From Marispirochaeta sp. (lineage in GTDB: Bacteria; Spirochaetota; Spirochaetia; JC444; Marispirochaetaceae), in contig CAXXFF010000003.1 in NCBI GenBank assembly GCA_963676835.2, positions 32,001 through 96,000 of the forward strand: a stretch of DNA of 64,000 nucleotides, read 5' to 3'. The notes beneath the pieces were generated by a model that was not told the DNA's origin, searched no databases, and was given only the letters and a program-made list of their open reading frames with translations. Below are positions 18,547 through 36,462 of the stretch, piece by piece (position 1 is the stretch's first letter; every line of letters begins with the position of its first letter). The translations under genes and the position numbers were made by a program.

Positions 18547-19038
18547 ATGGCAAAAATAATTGATACAGCTGCTTTTATTGCGGATAACGCTGCAGTTACC
18601 GGAAATGTAAGCCTGGGAAAAGATTCATCCGTTTGGTATGGAGCCTCAGTACGAGGAGATCTGGCTCCGATTACCATCGGAGAAGCAACGAACATTCAGG
18701 ATAATGCTTCTGTTCATGTAGATACTGATACTCCCACCGTTGTTGGCAAGGGCGTTACCGTAGGACACAACGCAGTCCTCCATGGCTGCACCGTGGGAGA
18801 TAACTGCCTTATAGGCATGGGTGCAATAGTATTGAACCGCTCGGTAATAGGCGAAGGTTCGATTATTGGCGCCGGCGCTCTGGTTACGGAAGACAAGGTG
18901 ATCCCCCCGGGTTCTCTTGCTGTTGGCTCCCCGGCTAAGGTTATCCGGCAGATTGATGAAGCCAGTCTTGAAAAAGTCAAAAAAAACGCCGGACATTACG
19001 TTGAGTATGCCCGGCGCCATAAAAATGGAGAGTATTAA
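18547..19038 (+). CDS. Gamma carbonic anhydrase family protein
   Basis: VRGD, NIQDN, VH, TVGHNAVLHG; hexapeptide repeats. Confidence 0.9.
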   Translation: MAKIIDTAAFIADNAAVTGNVSLGKDSSVWYGASVRGDLAPITIGEATNIQDNASVHVDTDTPTVVGKGVTVGHNAVLHGCTVGDNCLIGMGAIVLNRSVIGEGSIIGAGALVTEDKVIPPGSLAVGSPAKVIRQIDEASLEKVKKNAGHYVEYARRHKNGEY

Positions 19039-19040
19039 CC

Positions 19041-22000
19041 CTATTTTTTTGTCTCAATCCAGCGCTGCATGCCCCGTCTGACCGCATCGATCAGATAGGG
19101 GCGCATTTTTGCCGGGTTGATAATATTATCTATTGAACCCACCTCCCGGGCCCGTCCGACGCTGTGAATTGAATCAAATTCTGCCCCCAGGGCAGTCTGG
19201 TATTCGTTATAAACAGTCTGATACAGCATTTCAAACTCTTTGTAGGTACAGTCACCGTTCTTGAGTTTCCTGCGTTCTTCCACTATACGCGTATCCTCTT
19301 CGGTCTGTTTTTTAACCGTTTTGGGGAACACAACCGCAGCGGCAGGAGCACCGCCGATAACTGATGCGAAAGAACCTTCCAGTGCAGCTACTTCCAGAGA
19401 CGGATTAAGCTTCTTGGAAAAAACAACATAGGCGCCGCCATGATAGCGTGCGGTTACCAGGAACACAAGCGGGCCTTTGAAGTTAACCACAGCGCGGCCT
19501 ATTTCTGCACCGTATTCAAGCTGCAGACGTCGAAGAGATTCCGGAGAGCCGTCAAAGCCGGATAAATTTGCAATAATAACAGCCGGGAGTCTTCCCGAGA
19601 AGGAATTAATACCTCTGGCAACCTTTTTTGAAGACTGCGGATACAGGGTTCCACCGCTCCAGGTATCCGGTCCATCCGGCGGAACCGCTCCGATCCGGGA
19701 AAAGCTTCGGCTTTCGATACCGATCATACCGACAGCCTGTCCTCCAAGCCGGGTTTCCCATACGAGAGCAGTGTCACCGTCTTCGAGGTTTCTCCAACGC
19801 TCAAGTATTTCACCATCCTGATCCACCAGTGCACGCATAACCTGACGCATATCAAAGGGCTTTTTCCTGTCCGGATTATTGTCAAGGCTGAAAATATCAC
19901 CGATGGTCGTAAACCCCTGCCCCAGAGAATCAGTATATGCAGTGGATGTCACATCACGGCCTTCGGAGTCTGTACTCTCCATTATCCGGGGGAAGTCCTC
20001 TCCGGGAATAACATAACTTACCCGGTAATGCTGAAAAAGAACCGCATATGCTTCGGCTATATTGGCAACCCGGATTTGTGCCTGGCCGTTGGGAAGCATG
20101 ATTTTTTCTGCTCCGCCGATATCCACATTTGTTTCTCCGGATACACTACCGGAGAAATCCAATGCACGCTTTCCGGTAAGCAGCATGGAGGCATCATCGG
20201 TCATCAGCAGAAGCCCCCTGGTATGCATAAGCATAGTTGACTCTGCATCCCAGTAAGACTGGGCACCGACATTTATCGACTGGACAATAATGTTAATTTC
20301 CCCGCCGCCCTGGGTAAATTCTATAATCCTTTTCAGGGTAGCCGCTGTCCAGTCCAGGTTTTCGGTGCCGGAATCCATGGTGATCTTGGCCCCGGAGGAG
20401 ACGGGAATCCATTCCACGGGAATCTTTTCTGTTTCCGCCATATCTATCGCGGCGTTAATTCTGCGGCATTCTCCCTCGGCAAGGCTTCCCAGATCGCTGG
20501 TGGGGTCACTGAGAATCAGCATACGCCGGTATGCGATGCCTGTTTCAGGATCGGTATTTTCTATACGCCCGATAACAACATTGCTGCTGTTATTGCCGGG
20601 ATCCCTGCCTTTAACCGAGAACATTCGGGTTGCACCATTGCTCTCAACTTCAATATCAAACTCTTCAAACTCTCCCCGGGGAACACCCTGCTGAAGGGGG
20701 AAGCCGGCATGAGTCAGCATTTTAATCAGTTCATACGGGTAGATCTGGTTTCGCTGACGGGCCCGTACAACCTTTGAACCATAGGCATCAAGGGTTGTGA
20801 GAGGCACACCGGAAGGCTTTCGGCTGCGCAGGGTAAACTGATCCTGGGTTAAATTATGAAAAATCAGTTCGTGTTCCCGGATTGTCTCTTCTCTCCAGCG
20901 TTTCCGCCGTGTATAAACCACCATTTTTTCAAGGCCCAGACCGGCAGTTCGTGGCACAAGATTAAGTCCGAAATCCCGCAGCTGCATGAGCTTAAGCCCG
21001 AGGAGTGACCGGTTATAGATAATAATCCGGTTCCATTGCAGCCGGAAACGGTATCCCTGCTGCACTGCTCTCATGGCGGATACAGCTTCCATAAAAACCT
21101 GTTCGAAGCGGACCATGCGGGTAAGGTCGCTCATGGAGGAAAGTTCAGGATCTGTTTCCGATGTAGACGCCAGGGCAAACAGGCGCATATCTTTTGCATT
21201 TTCCCGGGCGGTTCCTTCCAGCACGGTAACATTCTCAGTTCTGGAAACAAGTTTCAGATGAAAGCCTTTAAGCCGCGCCACCCGCAGTTCGCGATATTCC
21301 AGAGGGCTGAAAGAAAACGCCTCTTCCCATTCTTTCCAATCCCCATCTTCATTGTGGTAGGTTGTGTAACTGGGGTAATCACTCTCCCCATATACACCGA
21401 TGGAAAGAAAGCGGCAGCTGAAAGGCGCAATAATCTTAATAACCTTACCGGCGTCTGCATCAAAAGGAAGCAGCAGAATAAACTCGCAGGTTTCGCTGCT
21501 GTATTTCCCTGCAGCAGTTTTAAGCAGACTTTCAACATCTGCTTTTTGATCAGCAATAATTATTACCGCATTGTCTTTATCCGGGAATTCCGCAGCGGCA
21601 CCGGCACTGTCTCCATCAAGATTCAGAATTTCTATTGATGAAACATCCCGGTCACGGTTCAGGTACTTTGTTACTATCTGAGCAAGAATATCCTTGTTTA
21701 TGCTGGATTTTTCTGCCCGGAGAAGATCAACCAAAACCGCAGGGGGAAGCTCAAGTATGGCATCGATCTTATTGTCCAGATCGTCAATACATCCGCTGCA
21801 GCTCTCTTTAATAAGGGTCCCCACTGAGGTGCGCTGTTTGTCCCGCTGCTGAGAGAGGTGAGCTTTATCCAGCAGAATATAGCGTGCATGCAGTGCAGCA
21901 TCTGCCAGATTCGGATGATTAACAATACTGATACGTACAATTTCATTAACCAGCAGGGGGAAGTTTTCATTAAGGACAGAATCATCCCCCGCTTCCTCAA

Positions 22001-24542
22001 GAAAAAGCAGAAGTTCCCGTGCGGCTGCAGCCTTCCCCTTAACTGCGTTATGGGATCGGTAAATATGAAACAGCAGCTGGTCGATATCGTCGTTTATCCC
22101 AGCTTTGCGATAGTTTTCAATAACCCTTTCCATGGCCTGAATAAACGGAGCAGGAAGACCTTTTTCCCTGTCGGTTTTTCTCAAAGCATAATGGGTAAGC
22201 AGCTCGGTAAAGCTGTGAGGACGACCGCCTCCGGTTCCGTCATCTATCTCACTGCTGCTGAAGAGTCCTTCCACGGCACAGAACTTCTCAAGAGCCCTTG
22301 AAGTGAGGTCCGTCAGGCGCTGTTTGAAATCTTCGCTGTCATTTTTTAATGATCTCAGGCGATTGATAATCTGAACCGGCGCGTCACCGGTATCAAAACC
22401 AAGAAACAGCGCGCGAATCTCGTAGCCGATTCTCTGCCAGAGCTCTTCATCCGAAGGAGCTTTCTGGTCAAATGTAACCCGGGTTTCAACAACCTCATCA
22501 ACAGCCTCTTCTTTCCCGTCTTCCTCTTCTTCCAGACGAATAAGAGACTGCCCCGCCGCGACCTGGGAACCAGGTCCTGCAAGTATGTCTGCCACAACTC
22601 CGTCACCGGGAGCTTCAATGAGCATCTCCATCTTCATGGCTTCAAGAACAAGCAGAACATCGCCTTTTTTTACACTGTCTCCGGGCTTTACCGGAATGGA
22701 CAAAATAATTGCAGGGGAAGGAGATTTAACAAAACCACGGGATTCCTGCTCAAGGAGAAAAGGTACGCCGTTTATTTCGCACTGAAGAGCGTCTCCACGA
22801 TGAACCAGCAGAAAGCGGTAGCGCTTGTTATTGTATTCAAGCACACCCTCTTCCTCTAAGGAACAGCGGTAATGACAGACGATAAACTGATCGTCCACCC
22901 CTATATGGTACCGTTCACCACCGACATGATACACCTCGAGCTGATATGAGGTTCCCCCCAGAGTCAGAGAGACCTCCTGAGGGCTGTTCCTGGGCATAGT
23001 CCGGGGCTTTCCTACACTGGAAAGATCGTACAGAAAGTTAACCCTGCTTTCATCAAGCTGCTTCAATGCAACTGTTACAGCACCGGCAATAAGCGCCGCC
23101 CGGAAATCCTCTTCTGGCGGGCGGGTAATCCCCCGCTGCAGAAGCTCAGCCACAAATCCGGTGGAAACACCGCCGGCTATAATCTCTTCCTGATCCAGAA
23201 GCTGCCTGAGAAAGGAACGGTTTGTTGTTCCGTTTTCTATACGGATGGTGCATTCATCAAGTGCCCGCTTAAGCCGAGCCATGGCTTCCTGCCGGTTTCG
23301 GCCCCGGGCAATAATCTTGGCGACCATGGAATCAAACTCGGGAGGGATTTCCGCACCGGTTTCGATTCCCGAATCAACTCTGATTCCCGGTCCTGCAGGT
23401 GATCTGAACAGATCAACTCCACCGGGTGCAGGGGAGAATTCCCTGCCTGGATCCTCGGCATTGAGTCGTACTTCCATAACATGTCCACGGGGAAATGCAT
23501 CTGAAAGATCGACTTCCAGTCCCGCGGCAACTTCTATCTGACCTGTAACCAGGTCGATCCCGTACAGTTCTTCAGTAATCGGATGTTCAACCTGAAGCCT
23601 GGTATTAACTTCCATAAAGAAGTAGCGGTCGGAATCGAGATCATACAGATATTCAACCGTACCGGCGCCTACATAATCTGCGGCATTGATAAGCCTGGCG
23701 GCAGCCTCCTGCATGGCCAGAATTTTCTCTTCCGGTAATCCGGGAGGTGGAGTTTCTTCTATTATCTTCTGATTTCGCCGCTGAACAGAGCAGTCCCGGA
23801 CACCAAAGGTGTTTACATGTCCATGACTGTCTGCAAGTACCTGTACCTCAAGGTGTCTACCTCGTTGTACCAGATGTTCAATGAAGACTGTTCTGGTACC
23901 GGTTATTCGCAGGGTTTCATCCACAGCTGAATTATACTGGGCCTTCAGTTCTTCCGGTGTAAGGACAAAACGGATGCCCCTGCCACCGCCGGCATTTGAA
24001 GCTTTTACGATAACCGGGTAACCGATTGCATTGGATACCTTCTCCGCATCCTCTATGGTCTCAACAGGTCCCTTACTCCAGGGGAGAATGGGAACATCCG
24101 CTGATTCAGCAAGGTCTTTTGCTGCGATTTTGTCACCCAGCAAAGCCATTGCCTTACTGGAAGGTCCCAGAAAGACCAGCCCCTTTGCTTCAGTTTTTTC
24201 TGCAAAAACCGAGTCTTCCGAGACAAATCCCCATCCCACCCATAAAGCATCACATCCGCCTTTTTCGAGGGCCGATATAATAAGTTCATGATCGAGATAA
24301 GGCGTAGATGCAGTTCCGGGAAATGCCTGAAGATCTTCAAAACATACACGGTCATCCGCATTTTTGACAAACGGTGACTGTTCTTCTTTTGCATTATAAA
24401 TAGCCACAGCTTCAATACTGGTGCCGTAGCGGGAGTTATACTCCCTTACTCCTCTGATAAAGCGTAAAGCAGCTTCACCGCGGTTTACTATTCCTATTCT
24501 GGAATCTGATTTCAAAACTGGAAGTGCAGTTTGGGGTGCCAA
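19041..24542 (-). CDS. Single-chain multidomain acetyl/acyl-CoA carboxylase (BC, BCCP, central region, CT)
   Basis: NRGE, GGGRGIR, RDCSVQRRNQK and EVNTRLQVEHP (BC); EAMKM biotinylation site; C-terminal carboxyltransferase; TTG start with GAGGAGG RBS. Confidence 0.92.
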   Translation of the reverse strand: MAPQTALPVLKSDSRIGIVNRGEAALRFIRGVREYNSRYGTSIEAVAIYNAKEEQSPFVKNADDRVCFEDLQAFPGTASTPYLDHELIISALEKGGCDALWVGWGFVSEDSVFAEKTEAKGLVFLGPSSKAMALLGDKIAAKDLAESADVPILPWSKGPVETIEDAEKVSNAIGYPVIVKASNAGGGRGIRFVLTPEELKAQYNSAVDETLRITGTRTVFIEHLVQRGRHLEVQVLADSHGHVNTFGVRDCSVQRRNQKIIEETPPPGLPEEKILAMQEAAARLINAADYVGAGTVEYLYDLDSDRYFFMEVNTRLQVEHPITEELYGIDLVTGQIEVAAGLEVDLSDAFPRGHVMEVRLNAEDPGREFSPAPGGVDLFRSPAGPGIRVDSGIETGAEIPPEFDSMVAKIIARGRNRQEAMARLKRALDECTIRIENGTTNRSFLRQLLDQEEIIAGGVSTGFVAELLQRGITRPPEEDFRAALIAGAVTVALKQLDESRVNFLYDLSSVGKPRTMPRNSPQEVSLTLGGTSYQLEVYHVGGERYHIGVDDQFIVCHYRCSLEEEGVLEYNNKRYRFLLVHRGDALQCEINGVPFLLEQESRGFVKSPSPAIILSIPVKPGDSVKKGDVLLVLEAMKMEMLIEAPGDGVVADILAGPGSQVAAGQSLIRLEEEEDGKEEAVDEVVETRVTFDQKAPSDEELWQRIGYEIRALFLGFDTGDAPVQIINRLRSLKNDSEDFKQRLTDLTSRALEKFCAVEGLFSSSEIDDGTGGGRPHSFTELLTHYALRKTDREKGLPAPFIQAMERVIENYRKAGINDDIDQLLFHIYRSHNAVKGKAAAARELLLFLEEAGDDSVLNENFPLLVNEIVRISIVNHPNLADAALHARYILLDKAHLSQQRDKQRTSVGTLIKESCSGCIDDLDNKIDAILELPPAVLVDLLRAEKSSINKDILAQIVTKYLNRDRDVSSIEILNLDGDSAGAAAEFPDKDNAVIIIADQKADVESLLKTAAGKYSSETCEFILLLPFDADAGKVIKIIAPFSCRFLSIGVYGESDYPSYTTYHNEDGDWKEWEEAFSFSPLEYRELRVARLKGFHLKLVSRTENVTVLEGTARENAKDMRLFALASTSETDPELSSMSDLTRMVRFEQVFMEAVSAMRAVQQGYRFRLQWNRIIIYNRSLLGLKLMQLRDFGLNLVPRTAGLGLEKMVVYTRRKRWREETIREHELIFHNLTQDQFTLRSRKPSGVPLTTLDAYGSKVVRARQRNQIYPYELIKMLTHAGFPLQQGVPRGEFEEFDIEVESNGATRMFSVKGRDPGNNSSNVVIGRIENTDPETGIAYRRMLILSDPTSDLGSLAEGECRRINAAIDMAETEKIPVEWIPVSSGAKITMDSGTENLDWTAATLKRIIEFTQGGGEINIIVQSINVGAQSYWDAESTMLMHTRGLLLMTDDASMLLTGKRALDFSGSVSGETNVDIGGAEKIMLPNGQAQIRVANIAEAYAVLFQHYRVSYVIPGEDFPRIMESTDSEGRDVTSTAYTDSLGQGFTTIGDIFSLDNNPDRKKPFDMRQVMRALVDQDGEILERWRNLEDGDTALVWETRLGGQAVGMIGIESRSFSRIGAVPPDGPDTWSGGTLYPQSSKKVARGINSFSGRLPAVIIANLSGFDGSPESLRRLQLEYGAEIGRAVVNFKGPLVFLVTARYHGGAYVVFSKKLNPSLEVAALEGSFASVIGGAPAAAVVFPKTVKKQTEEDTRIVEERRKLKNGDCTYKEFEMLYQTVYNEYQTALGAEFDSIHSVGRAREVGSIDNIINPAKMRPYLIDAVRRGMQRWIETKK

Positions 24543-24814
24543 AGGGTCGCCTCCTCATGCAGCGTTGTGTCGGCCACTGGCCGCATCGAGTGAAAAAAAG
24601 ATCACACGAGTATACCTATTCTACACGGCATGGTGAAGGCCCAGCAATAGCCAATTTATGCTTAAAAGAGTACGAATATTTAACCATTTTAGAGTTTATG
24701 GACATAAGGTGTCTGTATTGCCAGACACTCGGCTTGACTTAATCCTTCATTCTTGAGTACACAGACATAATCCTTTTAACCTGTATGGTTTAAGGATGGT
24801 TTTTGGGAGGATGG

Positions 24815-25798
24815 ATGAACGCTACTATCAGATCAGTCGGGGCTTACCTGCCTGCAGAGAGGGTAACCAACGACGATTTGGCCGCACGTATAGATACATC
24901 TGATGAATGGATACGCAGTCATACAGGTATCGGCGCCCGCCACATAGCAGGAAATGACGAAACAACATCAGAAATGGCAGTAAAAGCGGCCCTGAATGCA
25001 TTGGAAAATGGTGGCGTTTCACCTGATGAGATCGATATGGTCATAGTTGCAACAAGCACACCCGATTACACCGGCTTTCCTTCTACAGCGAGTATTGTCC
25101 AGGACCGGATCGGGGCGACATCCTGCGGAGCATTTGATCTGGGAGCCGCCTGCACCGGATTTGTTTATGCCATGGAGGCCGGCCGAGGGCTTATTGCAGG
25201 CGGCAGTTTCCGTAATGTTCTTGTTATAGGGGCTGAGAAAATGTCCGCCATGCTCAACTGGGAAGACCGCAGCACCTGTGTTCTATTCGGAGACGGCGCG
25301 GGGGCAGTTCTCCTTACTCCCGCCGACGATAATGCCGGGGTTCTCTCCTCCCGCCTGCTTTCCGACGGCAGCGGAGACGATGCACTTATTATACGTGCCG
25401 GAGGCGTCAAGATGCCCCTTAGAGGATGCAGTGAGGTTTCCAAAGAAGATATGTATATAGCCATGGACGGACGCAGGGTTTACAACTTTGCTGTCCAGGC
25501 TAATACGGAGCTTTTCAAAACCCTGCTTGCCGACGCAGACATTGAAATTGACCAGGTTAAATATATTGTTCCCCACCAGGCGAATGTTAAAATCATCAAG
25601 GCTGCGGCAAAACGGGCACGGATTCCTCTGGAAAAGTTCTATATAAACATAGAGGAGTATGCCAATACTTCCGCTGCTTCCATACCAATTGCCCTTAACG
25701 ATCTCTGGAGCAGAAAAGAGCTGAATAAGGGAGATATCATAATGATTGTCGGCTTCGGAGCCGGTTTGACCTATGGTGGTCAGCTTATTCGTTTGTAA
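24815..25798 (+). CDS. fabH: Beta-ketoacyl-ACP synthase III
   Basis: DTSDEWI, AACTGF, LFGDGAGA, PHQAN, NTSAAS; start refined using the GGAGG RBS. Confidence 0.95.
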   Translation: MNATIRSVGAYLPAERVTNDDLAARIDTSDEWIRSHTGIGARHIAGNDETTSEMAVKAALNALENGGVSPDEIDMVIVATSTPDYTGFPSTASIVQDRIGATSCGAFDLGAACTGFVYAMEAGRGLIAGGSFRNVLVIGAEKMSAMLNWEDRSTCVLFGDGAGAVLLTPADDNAGVLSSRLLSDGSGDDALIIRAGGVKMPLRGCSEVSKEDMYIAMDGRRVYNFAVQANTELFKTLLADADIEIDQVKYIVPHQANVKIIKAAAKRARIPLEKFYINIEEYANTSAASIPIALNDLWSRKELNKGDIIMIVGFGAGLTYGGQLIRL

Positions 25799-25867
25799 AT
25801 GTTTATATGTGTCCCCGGTTCAGTCGGTTCTTGACCGATAAAAACAGGGCATGATAAGGTCGCAGGA

Positions 25868-26818
25868 ATGGCAAATAACAACAGTAAAATCTGCTTTCTC
25901 TTTCCCGGACAGGGAGCCCAGTACAAGGGAATGGGAAAGGATATGTATGACAAAAGCCCGGCAGTACAGGAGCTTTTTACAAAAGCAAGTGACCTGACCG
26001 GTATTGATGTTCCCAATCTGCTCTTTGAGGCGGATGAAGAAGAACTGAAAAAAACAGAAAACACTCAGGTGGCAATAACGGCGGTAAATCTTGCAGCCTG
26101 GAAACTTCTGCAGGAAGCGGGTATTTCTCCGGCACTGGCCGCAGGATTCAGTCTGGGCGAGTTCAGTGCACTTGTAGCTGCGGGAGTAATATCTGAAGAA
26201 ACAGTATTTCCCATGGTAAAAGAGCGCGGTCTTATTATGGCAAAGGTTGCAGACAAGCTGTCAGCAGGGGGTAACGGCCCCGGAATGGCTGCGGTTATGG
26301 GTCTTGAGCCCGAAAAAGTGCAGGAACTCTGTGAAGCATCAGGGCTTGAACTCTATGCCGCCAACTTCAACAGCTCCGTACAGACAGTTGTTGCAGGTAC
26401 CTTTGATGCCTTAACCAGGGGTAAAGAATATTTCAGTGAAAACGGCGCAAAACGCTGGATCCCCTTAAAAGTATCCGGTCCTTTTCACTCCCCCCTTCTG
26501 AAAGAGGCACGGGAGGAGTTCAGTTCCATTGTTGATGCAGCCGATTTTGCTGATCCGCTTATCTCCCTTATCTCTAATGTTTCCGGCAAAGCTGTCAAAA
26601 ACGGTGAAGAGGCCAAAAAGCTCTGTATTGAGCAGGTTACCTCGCCGGTCCGCTGGACCACCGAAGAAGAAACAGTTCTTTCCCTGGGAGCTTCCGCCTG
26701 TATTGAAGCGGGCCCCGGAAAAGTTTTAACCGGACTTTGGAAAAAAACAGACTATACTATACCCTGTTATCCGGCTGGAACCATTGAAGAAATAAACGCT
26801 GCAGCAGCAGAACTGTAG
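25868..26818 (+). CDS. fabD: Malonyl-CoA:ACP transacylase
   Basis: FPGQGAQ, GFSLGE, SGPFHS, SPVRW. Confidence 0.95.
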   Translation: MANNNSKICFLFPGQGAQYKGMGKDMYDKSPAVQELFTKASDLTGIDVPNLLFEADEEELKKTENTQVAITAVNLAAWKLLQEAGISPALAAGFSLGEFSALVAAGVISEETVFPMVKERGLIMAKVADKLSAGGNGPGMAAVMGLEPEKVQELCEASGLELYAANFNSSVQTVVAGTFDALTRGKEYFSENGAKRWIPLKVSGPFHSPLLKEAREEFSSIVDAADFADPLISLISNVSGKAVKNGEEAKKLCIEQVTSPVRWTTEEETVLSLGASACIEAGPGKVLTGLWKKTDYTIPCYPAGTIEEINAAAAEL

Positions 26819-26912
26819 ACTTTTTCCTGCGGGACATATTGCCCGCACAACATATTTCCCGACGGCATACGCCGTCTCTATTTTATAAGGATAATTATTA
26901 CTGGAGGAAACT

Positions 26913-27653
26913 ATGCTTCTTGAAGGAAAAAAAGCCCTTGTAACCGGCGGTGCACAGGGTATCGGAAAAGAAATTGTCATGAAATTACTGTCTGAAGGCG
27001 CTTCAGTTCACTACTGTGACCTGAACGAAGGACCTTTCAAGGCAGAGATGGATGCTGCCTGCAAGGGTGACGCGGTTGCCGTTTTTCATAAGGCAAACAT
27101 CACCGATGAGGCTGAAGTCAAAGAGCTGATCAAAGAGATCACCGCTGACGGCAAGCTGGATATTCTTGTTAATAACGCGGGTATAACCCGGGACGGAATG
27201 GTTTTCCGCATGAGCCTCGACCAGTGGGAATCCGTACTGAAGGTAAACCTTACCGGAGCCTTCCTGGTTGCCAGGGAAGCATCAGCCTTTATGGCAATGA
27301 AACAGAAATCAGGAGCTATCATCAATATGGCTTCCGTTGTAGGCCAGATGGGTAATGCCGGACAGACAAACTACTCTGCATCCAAAGCAGGACTGATCGG
27401 CTTTACAAAATCCCTGGCAAAAGAGGTATCCAAACGTAATGTTCGGGTAAATGCCATTGCCCCGGGATTCATCGAAACAGCCATGACCGACAAACTTACG
27501 GATGAAGTAAAAGCTGATTATGCCCGTGCCATACCTCTTGGACGCATGGGATCTCCTGAAGATATCGCCAACGCCGTACTCTATCTTGCCAGTGATCTTT
27601 CCAACTACATCACCGGCCAGGTAATCCGCGTAGACGGCGGACTGATAATGTAA
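26913..27653 (+). CDS. fabG: 3-oxoacyl-ACP reductase
   Basis: NNAGITRD, GNAGQTNYSASK, APGFIET; fab operon context. Confidence 0.95.
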   Translation: MLLEGKKALVTGGAQGIGKEIVMKLLSEGASVHYCDLNEGPFKAEMDAACKGDAVAVFHKANITDEAEVKELIKEITADGKLDILVNNAGITRDGMVFRMSLDQWESVLKVNLTGAFLVAREASAFMAMKQKSGAIINMASVVGQMGNAGQTNYSASKAGLIGFTKSLAKEVSKRNVRVNAIAPGFIETAMTDKLTDEVKADYARAIPLGRMGSPEDIANAVLYLASDLSNYITGQVIRVDGGLIM

Positions 27654-27671
27654 CTTCCGGGAGGATTTCTG

Positions 27672-28919
27672 ATGGAACGAAGACGAGTCGTAATTACCGG
27701 ACTTGGTACGGTTAACTCTCTGGGGCTTGATATTACAAGTACCTGGGAAGCCGTAAAAGCCGGTAAAAGCGGAATAGGCCCCATTACCCTTTTTGATACA
27801 ACAGATTTCACCTGCCGTGTGGCGGGTGAAGTAAAAAACTTTGACCCTTCTGTCTGGATGGAGAAGAAAGAAGCAAGAAAACTGGCCAGATTCACCCAGT
27901 TTGCCATGGCCGGATCAGCCCAGGCCCTGGATGATTCAGGACTGCTTTCATCTGCATACGATTCCGACAGAGTGGGTGTAATCCTGGGTAACGGAATCGG
28001 CGGCTATGAGGTAACCGAGGAAGGTATCCGGCAGCTTGCAGAAAAAGGTCCACGGGCGGTGGCTCCCATGTCTATCCCCAAGCTGATTATCAACGAAGGG
28101 CCCGCAAATGTTTCGATAAAATTCGGTTTTCACGGACCCTGCTACGCCTTGGTTACGGCCTGTACTTCAGGTACCGACGCCATGGGTGCTGCCCTGAATG
28201 CAATCCGCAGCGGACAGATAGATGTTGCCGTAACAGGTGGTATGGAAGCTGCGATTACCCCCTTCGGCATTGCAGGTTTCCAGAAACTGACAGCCCTTTC
28301 CACCAACTTTAATGATACCCCGGAAAAAGCCAGCCGTCCTTTTGATAAGGACCGGGACGGTTTTGTAATGGGCGAAGGTGCCGGAATTCTGGTTATAGAA
28401 GAGCTGAGTCACGCCCTTAAAAGAGGGGCAAAAATCTACGCTGAACTTGCAGGCTACGGAATGAGCTGTGATGCATATCACCTTACCAGCCCGGATTCTA
28501 CCGGTACCGGCCCCTCCAAGGCCATGAAGTGGGCAATGCAGGATGCTGGTGTAGAACCGGAACAGGTTGATTATCTGAATGCACACGGTACTTCTACCCC
28601 CACCAACGACCCCCTTGAGACTATGGCGGTTAAAAAGGCCTTTGGTGATCATGCATCTAAACTGCCCATCTCATCAACCAAGTCAATGACTGCCCATATG
28701 ATAGGCGGCGCTGGCGGTATGGAAGCTATTCTTTCCATTCTTGCCATGAAAGACGGATATATTCCCCCCACTATCAACCTCGATGAACCCGACGAAGCAT
28801 GTGATCTCGATTATGTGCCGAACCAGGGCCGCAAGGCTGATCTTAAAGTCGTCATGTCCGACAACCTCGGTTTCGGTGGTCATAACGGCGTAGTAATTTT
28901 CAAGAAATTTGAGGAGTAG
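27672..28919 (+). CDS. fabF: Beta-ketoacyl-ACP synthase II
   Basis: TACTSG, SRPFDKDRDGFVMGEG, NAHGTST, GFGGHN. Confidence 0.95.
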   Translation: MERRRVVITGLGTVNSLGLDITSTWEAVKAGKSGIGPITLFDTTDFTCRVAGEVKNFDPSVWMEKKEARKLARFTQFAMAGSAQALDDSGLLSSAYDSDRVGVILGNGIGGYEVTEEGIRQLAEKGPRAVAPMSIPKLIINEGPANVSIKFGFHGPCYALVTACTSGTDAMGAALNAIRSGQIDVAVTGGMEAAITPFGIAGFQKLTALSTNFNDTPEKASRPFDKDRDGFVMGEGAGILVIEELSHALKRGAKIYAELAGYGMSCDAYHLTSPDSTGTGPSKAMKWAMQDAGVEPEQVDYLNAHGTSTPTNDPLETMAVKKAFGDHASKLPISSTKSMTAHMIGGAGGMEAILSILAMKDGYIPPTINLDEPDEACDLDYVPNQGRKADLKVVMSDNLGFGGHNGVVIFKKFEE

Positions 28920-28923
28920 TAAA

Positions 28924-29346
28924 ATGAGAGATATCAAGGAACTTTTACCCCACCGGAAACCTTTTCTTTTTGTGGATGAACTTCTTGAAGTAAGTGAAGA
29001 GAAAATTGTCGGTACCCGCAAATATGTCAAGGAAGAGTTCTTTTTCCCCGGACATTTCCCTGAGTATCCTGTTGTCCCCGGAGTAATCCTGGTGGAAACC
29101 ATGGCTCAGTGCGGCGGTGCCGGAGTTCGCGAGCTGGGAACATTGAGTGATGATGCCCTGTTTTTTCTTGCAGCTGTAGAAAAAGCGAAGTTCCGCCGTC
29201 AGGTACGTCCCGATGAAACCATTCGTATGGAAATTACCAACAACCGGCTCTCACCGAGAATGATTAAACAGAGCGGTAAATGCTATGTCGGCGAAGAACT
29301 CGCCTGTGAAGCATCCTGGACCTGTATGGTAGGCTCCAAGTCATGA
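28924..29346 (+). CDS. fabZ: 3-hydroxyacyl-ACP dehydratase
   Basis: LPHRKPFLFVD, GHFPEYPVVPGVILVETMAQ. Confidence 0.93.
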   Translation: MRDIKELLPHRKPFLFVDELLEVSEEKIVGTRKYVKEEFFFPGHFPEYPVVPGVILVETMAQCGGAGVRELGTLSDDALFFLAAVEKAKFRRQVRPDETIRMEITNNRLSPRMIKQSGKCYVGEELACEASWTCMVGSKS

Positions 29347-30512
29347 TTATTACTCCCAAGATTCGAAACAATATCTGCATGAATGCACACCCTGCAGGGT
29401 GTGAGCAGGAGACACTCAATCAGATTGAGTATGTCAAAAAACAGGGGACCTTTGATGGCCCGAAAACTGCTCTGGTGGTTGGTTCATCAACCGGTTTTGG
29501 TCTGGCATCGAGAATTTCTCTGGCTTTTGGTGCAGGTGCTGATACAATCGGTGTTTTTTTTGAAAAGGAAGCCACCGAAAAACGCCCGGGTACCCCGGGT
29601 TACTATAACAACCGTGCCTTTGAAAAGGCAGCTAAAGCCGCAGGCCGCAAAGCTGACAGTATCAACGGCGATGCCTTCAGTAATGAAGTGCGGAGCCAGG
29701 CAATTGACCTGATCAAGGAAAAATACGGCAGCATCGATCTGGTCGTCTACAGCCTTGCATCACCTGTCCGTACAGATCCCGATACCGGAGAGATGTACCG
29801 GTCCGTGTTGAAACCTCTGAAGGGTACCTACACGGCAAAATCTGTTGATGCAATGTCCGGCGAAATCGGTGAAGCATCGATTGAACCTGGCGATCAGGCA
29901 GATACTGAAGCAACCGTTAAGGTTATGGGCGGCGAAGACTGGAGAATCTGGCTCAAAGCTCTCAAAGATGCGGGTGTTCTGTCCAAAGGTGTTAAAACCG
30001 TAGCCTATTCGTACATAGGACCGGAAATAACCTACGCGGTTTACCGGGAAGGCACTATCGGTAAAGCCAAGGAGCACCTTGAAAAAACTGCTTTTGAAAT
30101 AACAGAAGATCTTAAGGATATGGACGGATCGGCCTTCGTATCTGTTAATAAAGCCCTGGTTACCCGTTCTTCTGCAGTTATTCCTGTTGTTCCCCTGTAT
30201 ATCGGGCTGCTGTACAAGGTTATGAAAGATAAGGGCATCCACGAAGGTTGTATTGAGCAGATGTACCGCCTTTTCAGCAGTCGCCTGTACTTAAAAGGGA
30301 ACGTACCTGTTGATGATCAGGGACGTATCCGTGTGGATGACTGGGAAATGCGGGAAGATGTTCAGGCTGAAGTACAGGCCCTCTGGCCACAGGTTACTTC
30401 AGAGAACCTCAACGAACTGGCTGACCTTAAAGGATATCAGACAGAGTTCCTTAACCTTCACGGTTTCGCCGTACCCGGTATCGATTACGATGCGGATGTA
30501 ACTGAATTCTGA
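29343..30512 (+). CDS. fabV: Enoyl-ACP reductase FabV / trans-2-enoyl-CoA reductase
   Basis: AHPAGC, GSSTGFG, YSLASP, VMGGEDW, YIGP, HEGCIEQ. Confidence 0.93.
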   Translation: MIITPKIRNNICMNAHPAGCEQETLNQIEYVKKQGTFDGPKTALVVGSSTGFGLASRISLAFGAGADTIGVFFEKEATEKRPGTPGYYNNRAFEKAAKAAGRKADSINGDAFSNEVRSQAIDLIKEKYGSIDLVVYSLASPVRTDPDTGEMYRSVLKPLKGTYTAKSVDAMSGEIGEASIEPGDQADTEATVKVMGGEDWRIWLKALKDAGVLSKGVKTVAYSYIGPEITYAVYREGTIGKAKEHLEKTAFEITEDLKDMDGSAFVSVNKALVTRSSAVIPVVPLYIGLLYKVMKDKGIHEGCIEQMYRLFSSRLYLKGNVPVDDQGRIRVDDWEMREDVQAEVQALWPQVTSENLNELADLKGYQTEFLNLHGFAVPGIDYDADVTEF

Positions 30513-35471: not shown

Positions 35472-35521
35472 TTGACCATTAACGCCGTTTACGTTAACCT
35501 GCCGCCTACCAATGGTTAACG
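35472..35521 (+). promoter_or_regulatory. birA promoter with BirA (bioO-type) operator
   Basis: TTGACC (35472)-17 bp-TAACCT (35495); inverted repeat CGTTAACC-N14-GGTTAACG at 35492-35521. Confidence 0.78.
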
Positions 35522-36462
35522 CTAAAACTGACATAAAACATTCAGTTCTCGCCATACTTGAAACTAATATGCGTCCCGTTTCGGGTAACGAAATAGGAGA
35601 AAGGCTTGGCATCAGCCGTGTTGCGGTCTGGAAACACATTAAAGGCCTGGTGGAAGAAGGGTACACAATAACAAGCGGACGCACCGGATATACCCTTTTA
35701 GTTAAACCGGATCACGTTACTTCCAGCGGTTTTGACCAGACCCGGGATGCAGTTGTTGTGCAGGAAACTGCAGAATCCACCATGGATATGGCAAAAAACT
35801 GCAAGAAATCCGGTATTGCCTTCTTCATCGCCGGAAACCAGCGTCAGGGACGCGGAAGAGAAGGAAAAGAGTGGGCTTCACCCGGAGGGGGCTTATACCT
35901 GACAATGGTTTTCACCCCGAAACTCCCCTCTGCCTACGCCAATTTGTATGTTATCGATGCGGGGCTGGCCATCGCAGAATATATCAACAGGCATTTTCAT
36001 ACAGAAGCATGGTTCAAATGGCCCAATGACCTGTACCTTGGAAACAGAAAACTGGGGGGACTGCTTCTTGAAGTTGAGGGGGAAACAACAAAACTGTCCA
36101 CCTGCAGACTCGGTTTTGGAATCAACATAGATCCCCTTAACAGAACGGACTACCCTTTTGCCGCAGCCGCAAGCCTTGCGGAAGAATCCTCCTCCCCTGC
36201 CGGGAAACCAACCATAAACAAGGTTTTTTCACTGCTAAAACCGGTACTTGAAAACACGGCGTTGCTCTCTGCTCCAGAATCAATTGTAACGCGATGGGAA
36301 AGCATGTCCGAAGATATTGGCACCAGTATAATTCTCGGAAAAAAAGGATACATCATTGCCGGTATGAATATGGCAGGCTCACTCATTCTCGAAGAAAGCA
36401 GTGGAGAACTCTGGGAAGCTTCTGCAGGATGGAATCTTGCCGGTCCTCTGCGGCATTTTTGA
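35512..36462 (+). CDS. birA: Bifunctional biotin--protein ligase/repressor
   Basis: N-terminal HTH SGNEIGERLGISRVAVWKHI; QRQGRGR, KWPND, KLGGLL. Confidence 0.92.
   Translation: MVNAKTDIKHSVLAILETNMRPVSGNEIGERLGISRVAVWKHIKGLVEEGYTITSGRTGYTLLVKPDHVTSSGFDQTRDAVVVQETAESTMDMAKNCKKSGIAFFIAGNQRQGRGREGKEWASPGGGLYLTMVFTPKLPSAYANLYVIDAGLAIAEYINRHFHTEAWFKWPNDLYLGNRKLGGLLLEVEGETTKLSTCRLGFGINIDPLNRTDYPFAAAASLAEESSSPAGKPTINKVFSLLKPVLENTALLSAPESIVTRWESMSEDIGTSIILGKKGYIIAGMNMAGSLILEESSGELWEASAGWNLAGPLRHF

Follow-up and report, generated by a model that had tools for sequence, protein, structure and literature searches.

Homomeric acetyl-CoA carboxylases (ACCs) of eukaryotes are typically chains of about 2200-2500 amino acids (aa). 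The closest bacterial system described is SACE_4237 of Saccharopolyspora erythraea, presented by Livieri et al. (2019, PMC6491548) as a multidomain ACC of ~200 kDa that is homologous to eukaryotic ACC from end to end, conserved central region included. In that paper it is reported to be homodimeric and essential, to carboxylate both acetyl- and propionyl-CoA and to provide the malonyl-CoA used in fatty acid synthesis; the type is named "actinobacterial homodimeric multidomain ACC" (group V), and S. erythraea is described there as being without the ordinary essential ACC, yet with several other carboxylases. A second single-chain bacterial enzyme, the carboxylase for long-chain acyl-CoAs (LCC; Tran et al. 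[quoted passage not shown] In a 2011 survey, the three spirochaete genomes covered were recorded as being without the usual bacterial ACC (Lombard and Moreira 2011, PMC3199775). We studied a stretch of 64,000 bp from the spirochaete Marispirochaeta sp. (assembly GCA_963676835.2, contig CAXXFF010000003.1, positions 32,001 to 96,000 of the forward strand), hereafter the window, in which a gene at 19041..24542 in the negative strand very likely encodes a biotin-dependent single-chain ACC of eukaryote-type architecture. We place this enzyme in the SACE_4237 family and propose that it is the sole ACC of its genome, replacing AccABCD and feeding the adjacent fabHDGFZV genes.

The gene was an intact single frame of 1833 codons, with a TTG start preceded at 7 nt by a GAGGAGG Shine-Dalgarno sequence (24550-24556) and a stop codon at 19041-19043; the database record of the same protein has 1824 aa, its start being called 9 codons later. 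Pfam matches showed the order BC, BCCP, central region and CT, all encoded in the negative strand; a presumed BT-like linker lies between BC and BCCP, and the central region has ~600 residues. The open frame and the Pfam matches agree with the single chain that the original prediction had described, and all four motifs quoted there were found in the translation. The BC domain (residues 15-465; 23148..24500) matched PF00289 (Biotin_carb_N), PF02786 (CPSase_L_D2) and PF02785 (Biotin_carb_C), and scored 435-461 bits with the accC-type models of NCBIfam, under their equivalog cut-offs. Its motifs GGGRGIR (185-191), RDCSVQRRNQK (249-259), EVNTRLQVEHP (311-321) and RLNAEDP (359-365) presumably correspond to the catalytic residues of E. 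coli AccC. The BC-BCCP linker (residues 466-604; 22731..23147) is presumed to be BT-like by position only; the Pfam BT domain (PF21385, ACCA_BT) had no match in the window protein at E<=0.01 and was listed for two of 120 listed homologues (P0038 and P0045). The BCCP domain (residues 605-673; 22524..22730) matched PF00364 (Biotin_lipoyl) at 608-670 with 59.9 bits and carried the biotin-attachment motif EAMKM at residues 634-638 (22629-22643), whose lysine is K637. The central domain (residues ~694-1268; 20739..22463), helical in its N-terminal part and alpha/beta in the following parts, was delimited with an AF2 model, Foldseek, VIA and Pfam ACC_central. The CT domain (residues 1290-1833; 19044..20675) matched PF01039 (Carboxyl_trans) at 1343-1821 with 112.6 bits and presented the family motifs SGTENLDW (1391-1398) and SGFDGSPES (1661-1669).

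The relationship with eukaryotic ACC was most apparent in the predicted fold of the central region. Residues 675-1300, aligned with 75 full-length homologues, were folded with AF2, giving a model with a mean pLDDT of 88.7 and a pTM of 0.85, in which a helical N-terminal half is followed by alpha/beta units. Foldseek comparison of this model with the PDB retrieved 31 matches at E<=1e-3, every one of them a eukaryotic ACC chain containing the central domain: the best were yeast 5csk_B (3.5e-19), 5csa (BT-BCCP-AC1-AC5; 2.2e-18) and human 8xl2, Chaetomium ACC was also matched, and the structure next after the ACC chains was an unrelated one (4e-3). In VIA alignments the model scored Z 28.5 against human ACC1 (501 aligned residues; positions 22-594 of the model over 847-1597 of the chain), Z 28.2 against yeast ACC (positions 22-580 over 796-1493) and Z 27.7 against the AC3-AC5 crystal structure (rmsd 3.9 Å), and the first non-ACC chain reached only Z 8.5. 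The alignments to the human and yeast enzymes, of ~500 residues, span AC1-AC5; identity to eukaryotic ACC in these structural alignments was 12-14%. Judged from the model, the whole central domain of eukaryotic ACC has its counterpart in the middle region of the window protein. Ranking of PDB sequences for the CT (residues 1250-1833) pointed in the same direction, the best solved relatives being the CTs of eukaryotic ACC (C. thermophilum 5i6g, 3e-17; yeast 3tv5, 5.4e-17; human ACC2, 1.3e-13), while the beta subunits of bacterial GCC and PCC trailed at 7e-9 and weaker. Both results favor the original suggestion that the protein is a bacterial relative of eukaryotic ACC; the accompanying remark that its motifs resemble those of fungi and animals stood for the CT by this ranking and did not stand for the BC (see below).

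We then consider the genome in which the gene resides. All contigs of the assembly (4 contigs, 4.43 Mb, 97.3% complete) were searched with profiles. PF01039 had a single match genome-wide, the ACC gene itself; AccA (PF03255) had no match in the whole assembly, the BCCP model found no free-standing BCCP, and the accC model, apart from the two CarB halves, matched the ACC gene alone. The remaining biotin/lipoyl domains of the genome were those of lipoyl proteins and of one OadA-like 5S-carboxyltransferase-BCCP protein. Thus, the absence of accA, accB, accC and accD reported from the window extended to the whole 97.3%-complete assembly. Since the ACC gene is the sole BC and CT found in the genome and lies next to a type II fatty acid synthase (FAS II), the enzyme that it encodes very probably supplies the housekeeping malonyl-CoA, as had been proposed from the sequence. 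About 11 kb from the ACC gene lies a gene for a BirA-type biotin protein ligase that carries a helix-turn-helix at its N-terminus (35512-36462, positive strand; PF08279 and PF03099; TIGR00121, 121 bits), and a second ligase-like match was found on contig C1.

The FAS II operon, consumer of malonyl-CoA, occupies 24803..30512 of the positive strand and consists of fabH (24803-25798), fabD (25868-26818), fabG (26913-27653), fabF (27672-28919), fabZ (28909-29346) and fabV (29343-30512), each above its NCBIfam cut-off. It is separated from the ACC gene by a divergent intergenic region of 260 bp (24543..24802), so the head-to-head arrangement was as first described. FabD and the full FAS II set need malonyl-CoA, and the window ACC was the only candidate enzyme found for its supply. 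The divergent arrangement of ACC gene and fabHDGFZV was kept in 5/5 fetched loci of the same family. Within the intergenic region, a sigma-70-like -10 sequence, TATACT, was found in the negative strand, ending at 24609; the promoter scan gave 9 sites with 6.6 expected, hence this site is weak alone. Between the predicted -10 and the Shine-Dalgarno sequence, the ACC leader contains the GGCC-N-GGCC palindrome CGGCCAGTGGCCG (24571-24583, negative strand). The -10 block and the palindrome were both kept in all six aligned intergenic regions of the family, the most distant included; the palindrome may serve as an operator or form a hairpin in the leader, and the ACC gene and the fab operon would be co-regulated from the region that they share. 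Upstream of fabH there is also a TTGACTTAAT block conserved within the genus. Note that acpP is missing between fabG and fabF, where the gap is 18 bp (window 27653-27672); the sole acpP match was on contig C1 (G000:C1:112935-113159).

By analogy with biotin carboxylases in general, the BirA-type ligase would biotinylate Lys637, and the BC domain would then carboxylate the biotin using ATP and bicarbonate. The BCCP would swing to the CT, which would hand the carboxyl group to acetyl-CoA, the presumed substrate, to yield malonyl-CoA. As in the yeast and human enzymes, the non-catalytic central domain would act as a scaffold keeping the BC and CT of a putative homodimer in register. In place of AccABCD, the enzyme would feed the divergent fabHDGFZV operon through FabD, and we infer that it is essential.

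Other genes related to these subjects were observed in the neighborhood and elsewhere in the genome. A gamma-class carbonic anhydrase (18547-19038, positive strand; NCBIfam NF050158, E 1.8e-54, 184 bits, under the 250-bit cut-off) is convergent with the ACC gene and ends 2 bp from its stop; this pairing was present in 4/4 fetched loci of the same genus and absent in the more distant family member G151, and the anhydrase might supply bicarbonate to the BC domain. The OadA/PycB-like protein mentioned above (610 codons; G000:C2:372734-374566, negative strand), with a C-terminal biotinyl domain and the motif SMKM, was the one further biotin enzyme that the genome searches turned up, and the accC model search revealed no separate biotin carboxylase to serve it. 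Outside the window, G000:C2:1108201-1111584 (positive strand) encodes an unusual fusion of 1127 codons, composed of a 2-oxoacid dehydrogenase E1 (E1_dh, Transket_pyr, Transketolase_C), a lipoyl domain and a FabH-like KAS III (ACP_syn_III and its C-terminal domain), which might couple keto-acid decarboxylation to fatty-acid priming.

Among spirochaetes, the ACC gene was present in 7/7 genomes of the window's order. A class-level sample of 151 genomes, searched with the CT, had it in 32, with frames of ~1765-1930 aa where the contig allows. Strong AccA matches, counted only at E<=1e-55 and tallied by hand from the rows, were present in 54 of the 151; the raw PF03255 tally of 108/151 was set aside because this profile cross-matches PCCB-like CTs at E 1e-7 to 1e-16. 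The two systems occurred together only in G171 (5% contamination) and G180 (69% complete), and by subtraction 67 of the 151 genomes had neither. This near-exclusive pattern is as expected of functional equivalents; related genomes are not independent samples. Where present, the one-piece gene is thus a candidate answer to the gap noted in the 2011 survey (PMC3199775), yet 54 of the 151 class genomes do have a strong AccA match and 67 have neither system. A phylum-wide search with the central region found it in 1 of 151 genomes, the window's own, in a sample poor in members of the class. The closest named relatives were Marispirochaeta, with 66-68% identity over the central and CT part, and identity to the 119 listed spirochaete-type homologues was 46-68%. 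In two other spirochaete genomes an in-frame stop lies inside the CT match (TAG in G273:C1:369428-371146 and TAA in G238:C2:147979-149682), which may reflect decay of the copy or an error in sequencing.

The family was not restricted to spirochaetes. When one genome per bacterial species was searched with two CT motifs, the confirmed relatives numbered at least 586 and their titles pointed to about ten phyla; among them were Saccharopolyspora hirsuta, Kutzneria, Nocardia, Micromonospora and Amycolatopsis and, by record titles, members of Myxococcota, Acidobacteriota, Oligoflexia, Dormibacterota, Rhodothermales and others. Precomputed Pfam lists also showed longer relatives with extra domains: a biotin ligase in P0300 (PF03099 and PF02237), a 4'-phosphopantetheinyl transferase in P0289 (PF01648) and ketoreductase-type (KR) domains in P0290. 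Open-access literature searches, with subscription journals largely outside their reach, found no paper on a spirochaete single-chain ACC.

Three CT trees were built: a quick IQ-TREE of 78 rows, a FastTree of 95 rows with named loci and a careful IQ-TREE of 47 rows under a mixture model, with ten (or seven) PCCB-like CTs from spirochaete genomes as outgroup. In all of them the bacterial single-chain family was one clade with 98-99% support, and the three fungal-type ACCs adjoined it on a long branch; the family stood beside fungal ACC and apart from the PCCB-like CTs. In the careful tree the 9 spirochaete rows formed one clade (92/91), and all other phyla minus two Oligoflexia rows, among them Myxococcota and Acidobacteriota, formed another (99/99), inside which Actinomycetota were nested. 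Rooted on the PCCB-like CTs, the spirochaete and Oligoflexia lineages were basal in the bacterial family and Actinomycetota nested deep. When fungi and Actinomycetota were forced together, the approximately unbiased (AU) test gave a log-likelihood 23.3 lower and a p-AU of 0.052, not a rejection. The spirochaete ACCs are not new as a type; judged from the CT sequences, they appear as a distinct, early-branching lineage of a known bacterial family, newly recognized here. The 1995-aa protein P0222, recorded as coming from the green alga Mesostigma viride, was not taken as a eukaryote: its CT is compact and of bacterial type and nested among Actinomycetota (FastTree, support 81-96), and the sequence probably reflects either a transfer or bacterial DNA contaminating that data set.

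Several observations weigh against the interpretation of the gene as a eukaryote-type ACC that serves as the sole ACC and feeds the fab operon. In a comparison that is a ranking of PDB matches only, the BC domain alone drew its best 60 matches, at 348-262 bits, exclusively from biotin carboxylases of bacterial or mitochondrial type and none from eukaryotic ACC chains, so the domain is nearer ordinary bacterial BCs than the BC of eukaryotic ACC. The sequence signal of the central domain was faint: the check with Pfam ACC_central was positive and marginal (24.8 bits, just above the cut-off of 23.2, with residues 1052-1123 aligned to positions 509-582 of the 726 in the profile), phmmer with the central region alone had no match among PDB sequences at E<=10, and a central-domain-only profile from 75 spirochaete rows gave 15-16 bits on two fungal ACCs and 229 bits on the 1830-aa open reading frame (ORF) of S. 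hirsuta. As the signal toward fungal ACC is marginal, homology of this domain to that of eukaryotes rests on the predicted fold. The trees, with their long branches, were made from the CT only and had three fungal-type rows and one kind of outgroup. Both systems are encoded in two of the 32 genomes that have the ACC gene, and in a genome 97.3% complete an overlooked accABCD is conceivable. Adjacency to fab genes was seen in the window's own family only: the 13 loci from other spirochaete families have unrelated genes directly flanking the ACC gene, with no fab gene next to it. The linkage is therefore a trait of the window's family and not of the enzyme. Finally, the characterized relative SACE_4237 takes propionyl-CoA besides acetyl-CoA, according to PMC6491548.

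This last point leads to the alternative that survives best, although we regard it as unlikely: a broad-specificity short-chain acyl-CoA carboxylase whose role includes, or mainly is, the formation of methylmalonyl-CoA from propionyl-CoA, malonyl-CoA being one product among several. The gene encodes the only CT of a genome whose complete FAS II set needs malonyl-CoA, and it lies head-to-head with fabH throughout its family; moreover, this alternative overlaps with the sole-ACC reading and does not exclude it. Far less probable, and close to refuted, is the alternative in which the enzyme serves secondary metabolism (polyketides, special lipids) as an accessory carboxylase and an ordinary ACC elsewhere feeds fatty acid synthesis. 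The fused family forms with KR or phosphopantetheinyl-transferase domains would be in keeping with it, but accA, accB, accC, accD or a second CT were not found in the 97.3%-complete genome and the neighbors are housekeeping fab genes. Membership in the LCC group is less probable again: LCC is also a single-chain bacterial biotin-dependent carboxylase, but the order BC, BCCP, central domain, CT of the window protein, with a true central domain, against the reversed order and hexamer without such a domain given for LCC in PMC6491548, refutes it.

The alternative that fares worst, refuted by trees and synteny, would make the ACC gene eukaryotic, either acquired by a bacterium through recent transfer or present in the assembly as a contaminant, an origin that the eukaryote-type architecture and a CT nearest to eukaryotic ones among solved structures might have suggested: the protein is shorter than two named fungal ACCs and its 544-residue CT is collinear with other bacterial CTs while fungal CTs match piecewise, identity is 22-23% to fungal ACCs against the 46-68% to the listed spirochaete-type homologues, fungi fall outside the single clade formed by the bacterial family, the GC content of the gene region (0.48-0.51) is inside or near the window's range, and synteny was kept in the five fetched loci of same-family relatives.

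Taking the window ACC as the sole, eukaryote-type ACC of its genome, the results extend the characterized "eukaryote-like" bacterial ACC to Spirochaetota, where it is apparently the only ACC of the genomes that carry it. The broad spread of the family, in species genomes of about ten phyla, weakens the label "actinobacterial", and the position of the spirochaete branch near the base of the family, together with this spread, bears on the origin of eukaryotic ACC, for which the tree with an actinobacterial origin had the p-AU of 0.052 given above. Being a compact, self-contained ACC of 1833 aa from a mesophilic bacterium, the enzyme could be a handy malonyl-CoA module and a simpler model for the role of the central domain. 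A wider reading that joins these lines is possible but doubtful as a whole: the eukaryote-type architecture with central domain would be an old and widespread bacterial invention rather than an actinobacterial one, eukaryotic ACC would come from outside Actinomycetota, the one-piece enzyme and AccABCD would have been repeatedly swapped as sole malonyl-CoA source in Spirochaetia, and in the Marispirochaeta-like family a divergent control region common to both, carrying the conserved palindrome, would have tied the enzyme to FAS II.

Compared with known systems, the window ACC shares with heteromeric AccABCD the overall reaction and the metabolic place, and its gene is nearly exclusive with AccA in the class sample; it differs in being one chain and not four, in having a fused CT rather than one split between AccA and AccD, and in the presence of a central domain. 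With LCC, as described in the text cited above, it has in common the condition of a single-chain bacterial biotin-dependent acyl-CoA carboxylase, and differs in the reversed domain order and in its central domain. Shewanella AccS, another single-chain bacterial carboxylase, has, as described by Xu et al. (2024, PMC11602165), a domain order other than the eukaryotic one of the window protein.

Eukaryotic homomeric ACC (yeast Acc1, human ACC1/ACC2; PDB 5csl, 5csa, 8xkz, 6g2d) has the same domain order and the same central fold AC1-AC5, and its CT is the nearest solved relative. Unlike it, the window protein has 1833 aa, ~430-460 residues fewer than the 2268-2296 aa of two named fungal ACCs, and a compact CT, which fungal CTs match in separate pieces over a longer stretch. 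ACC_central gave 24.8 bits over profile positions 509-582 in the window protein and 989 bits over 1-726 in a fungal ACC; besides, the window protein has no Pfam BT match, its BC is nearer bacterial BCs, and it falls inside the bacterial clade (98-99%) with fungi outside.

The greatest likeness was to the SACE_4237 type, for which the homologue of the congener S. hirsuta stood in throughout our comparisons. BLASTP aligned the 1830-aa ORF of S. hirsuta with the window protein end-to-end at 40% identity (1874 columns, 1157 bits; 53% in the CT), and the ORF itself matched ACC_central at 55 bits. Both are single chains of ~200 kDa in the order BC, BCCP, central region, CT, with a central region related to the eukaryotic one and a CT that groups with the CT of eukaryotic ACC, apart from PCCB-like CTs. 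By its sequence the window ACC is a member of this bacterial family, an enzyme type known in bacteria since 2019. The premise of the original prediction that characterized bacterial single-chain carboxylases lack the central domain is outdated, SACE_4237 having it according to PMC6491548, and the novelty claimed there is therefore much reduced. The window ACC differs from the SACE_4237 type in belonging to a separate spirochaete clade, outside the 99/99 clade that holds Actinomycetota, in being the only CT and BC of its genome, whereas S. erythraea has several other carboxylases according to that paper, and in its divergent pairing with a complete fabHDGFZV operon. The window ACC is thus not a new kind of system but a new branch of a known family.

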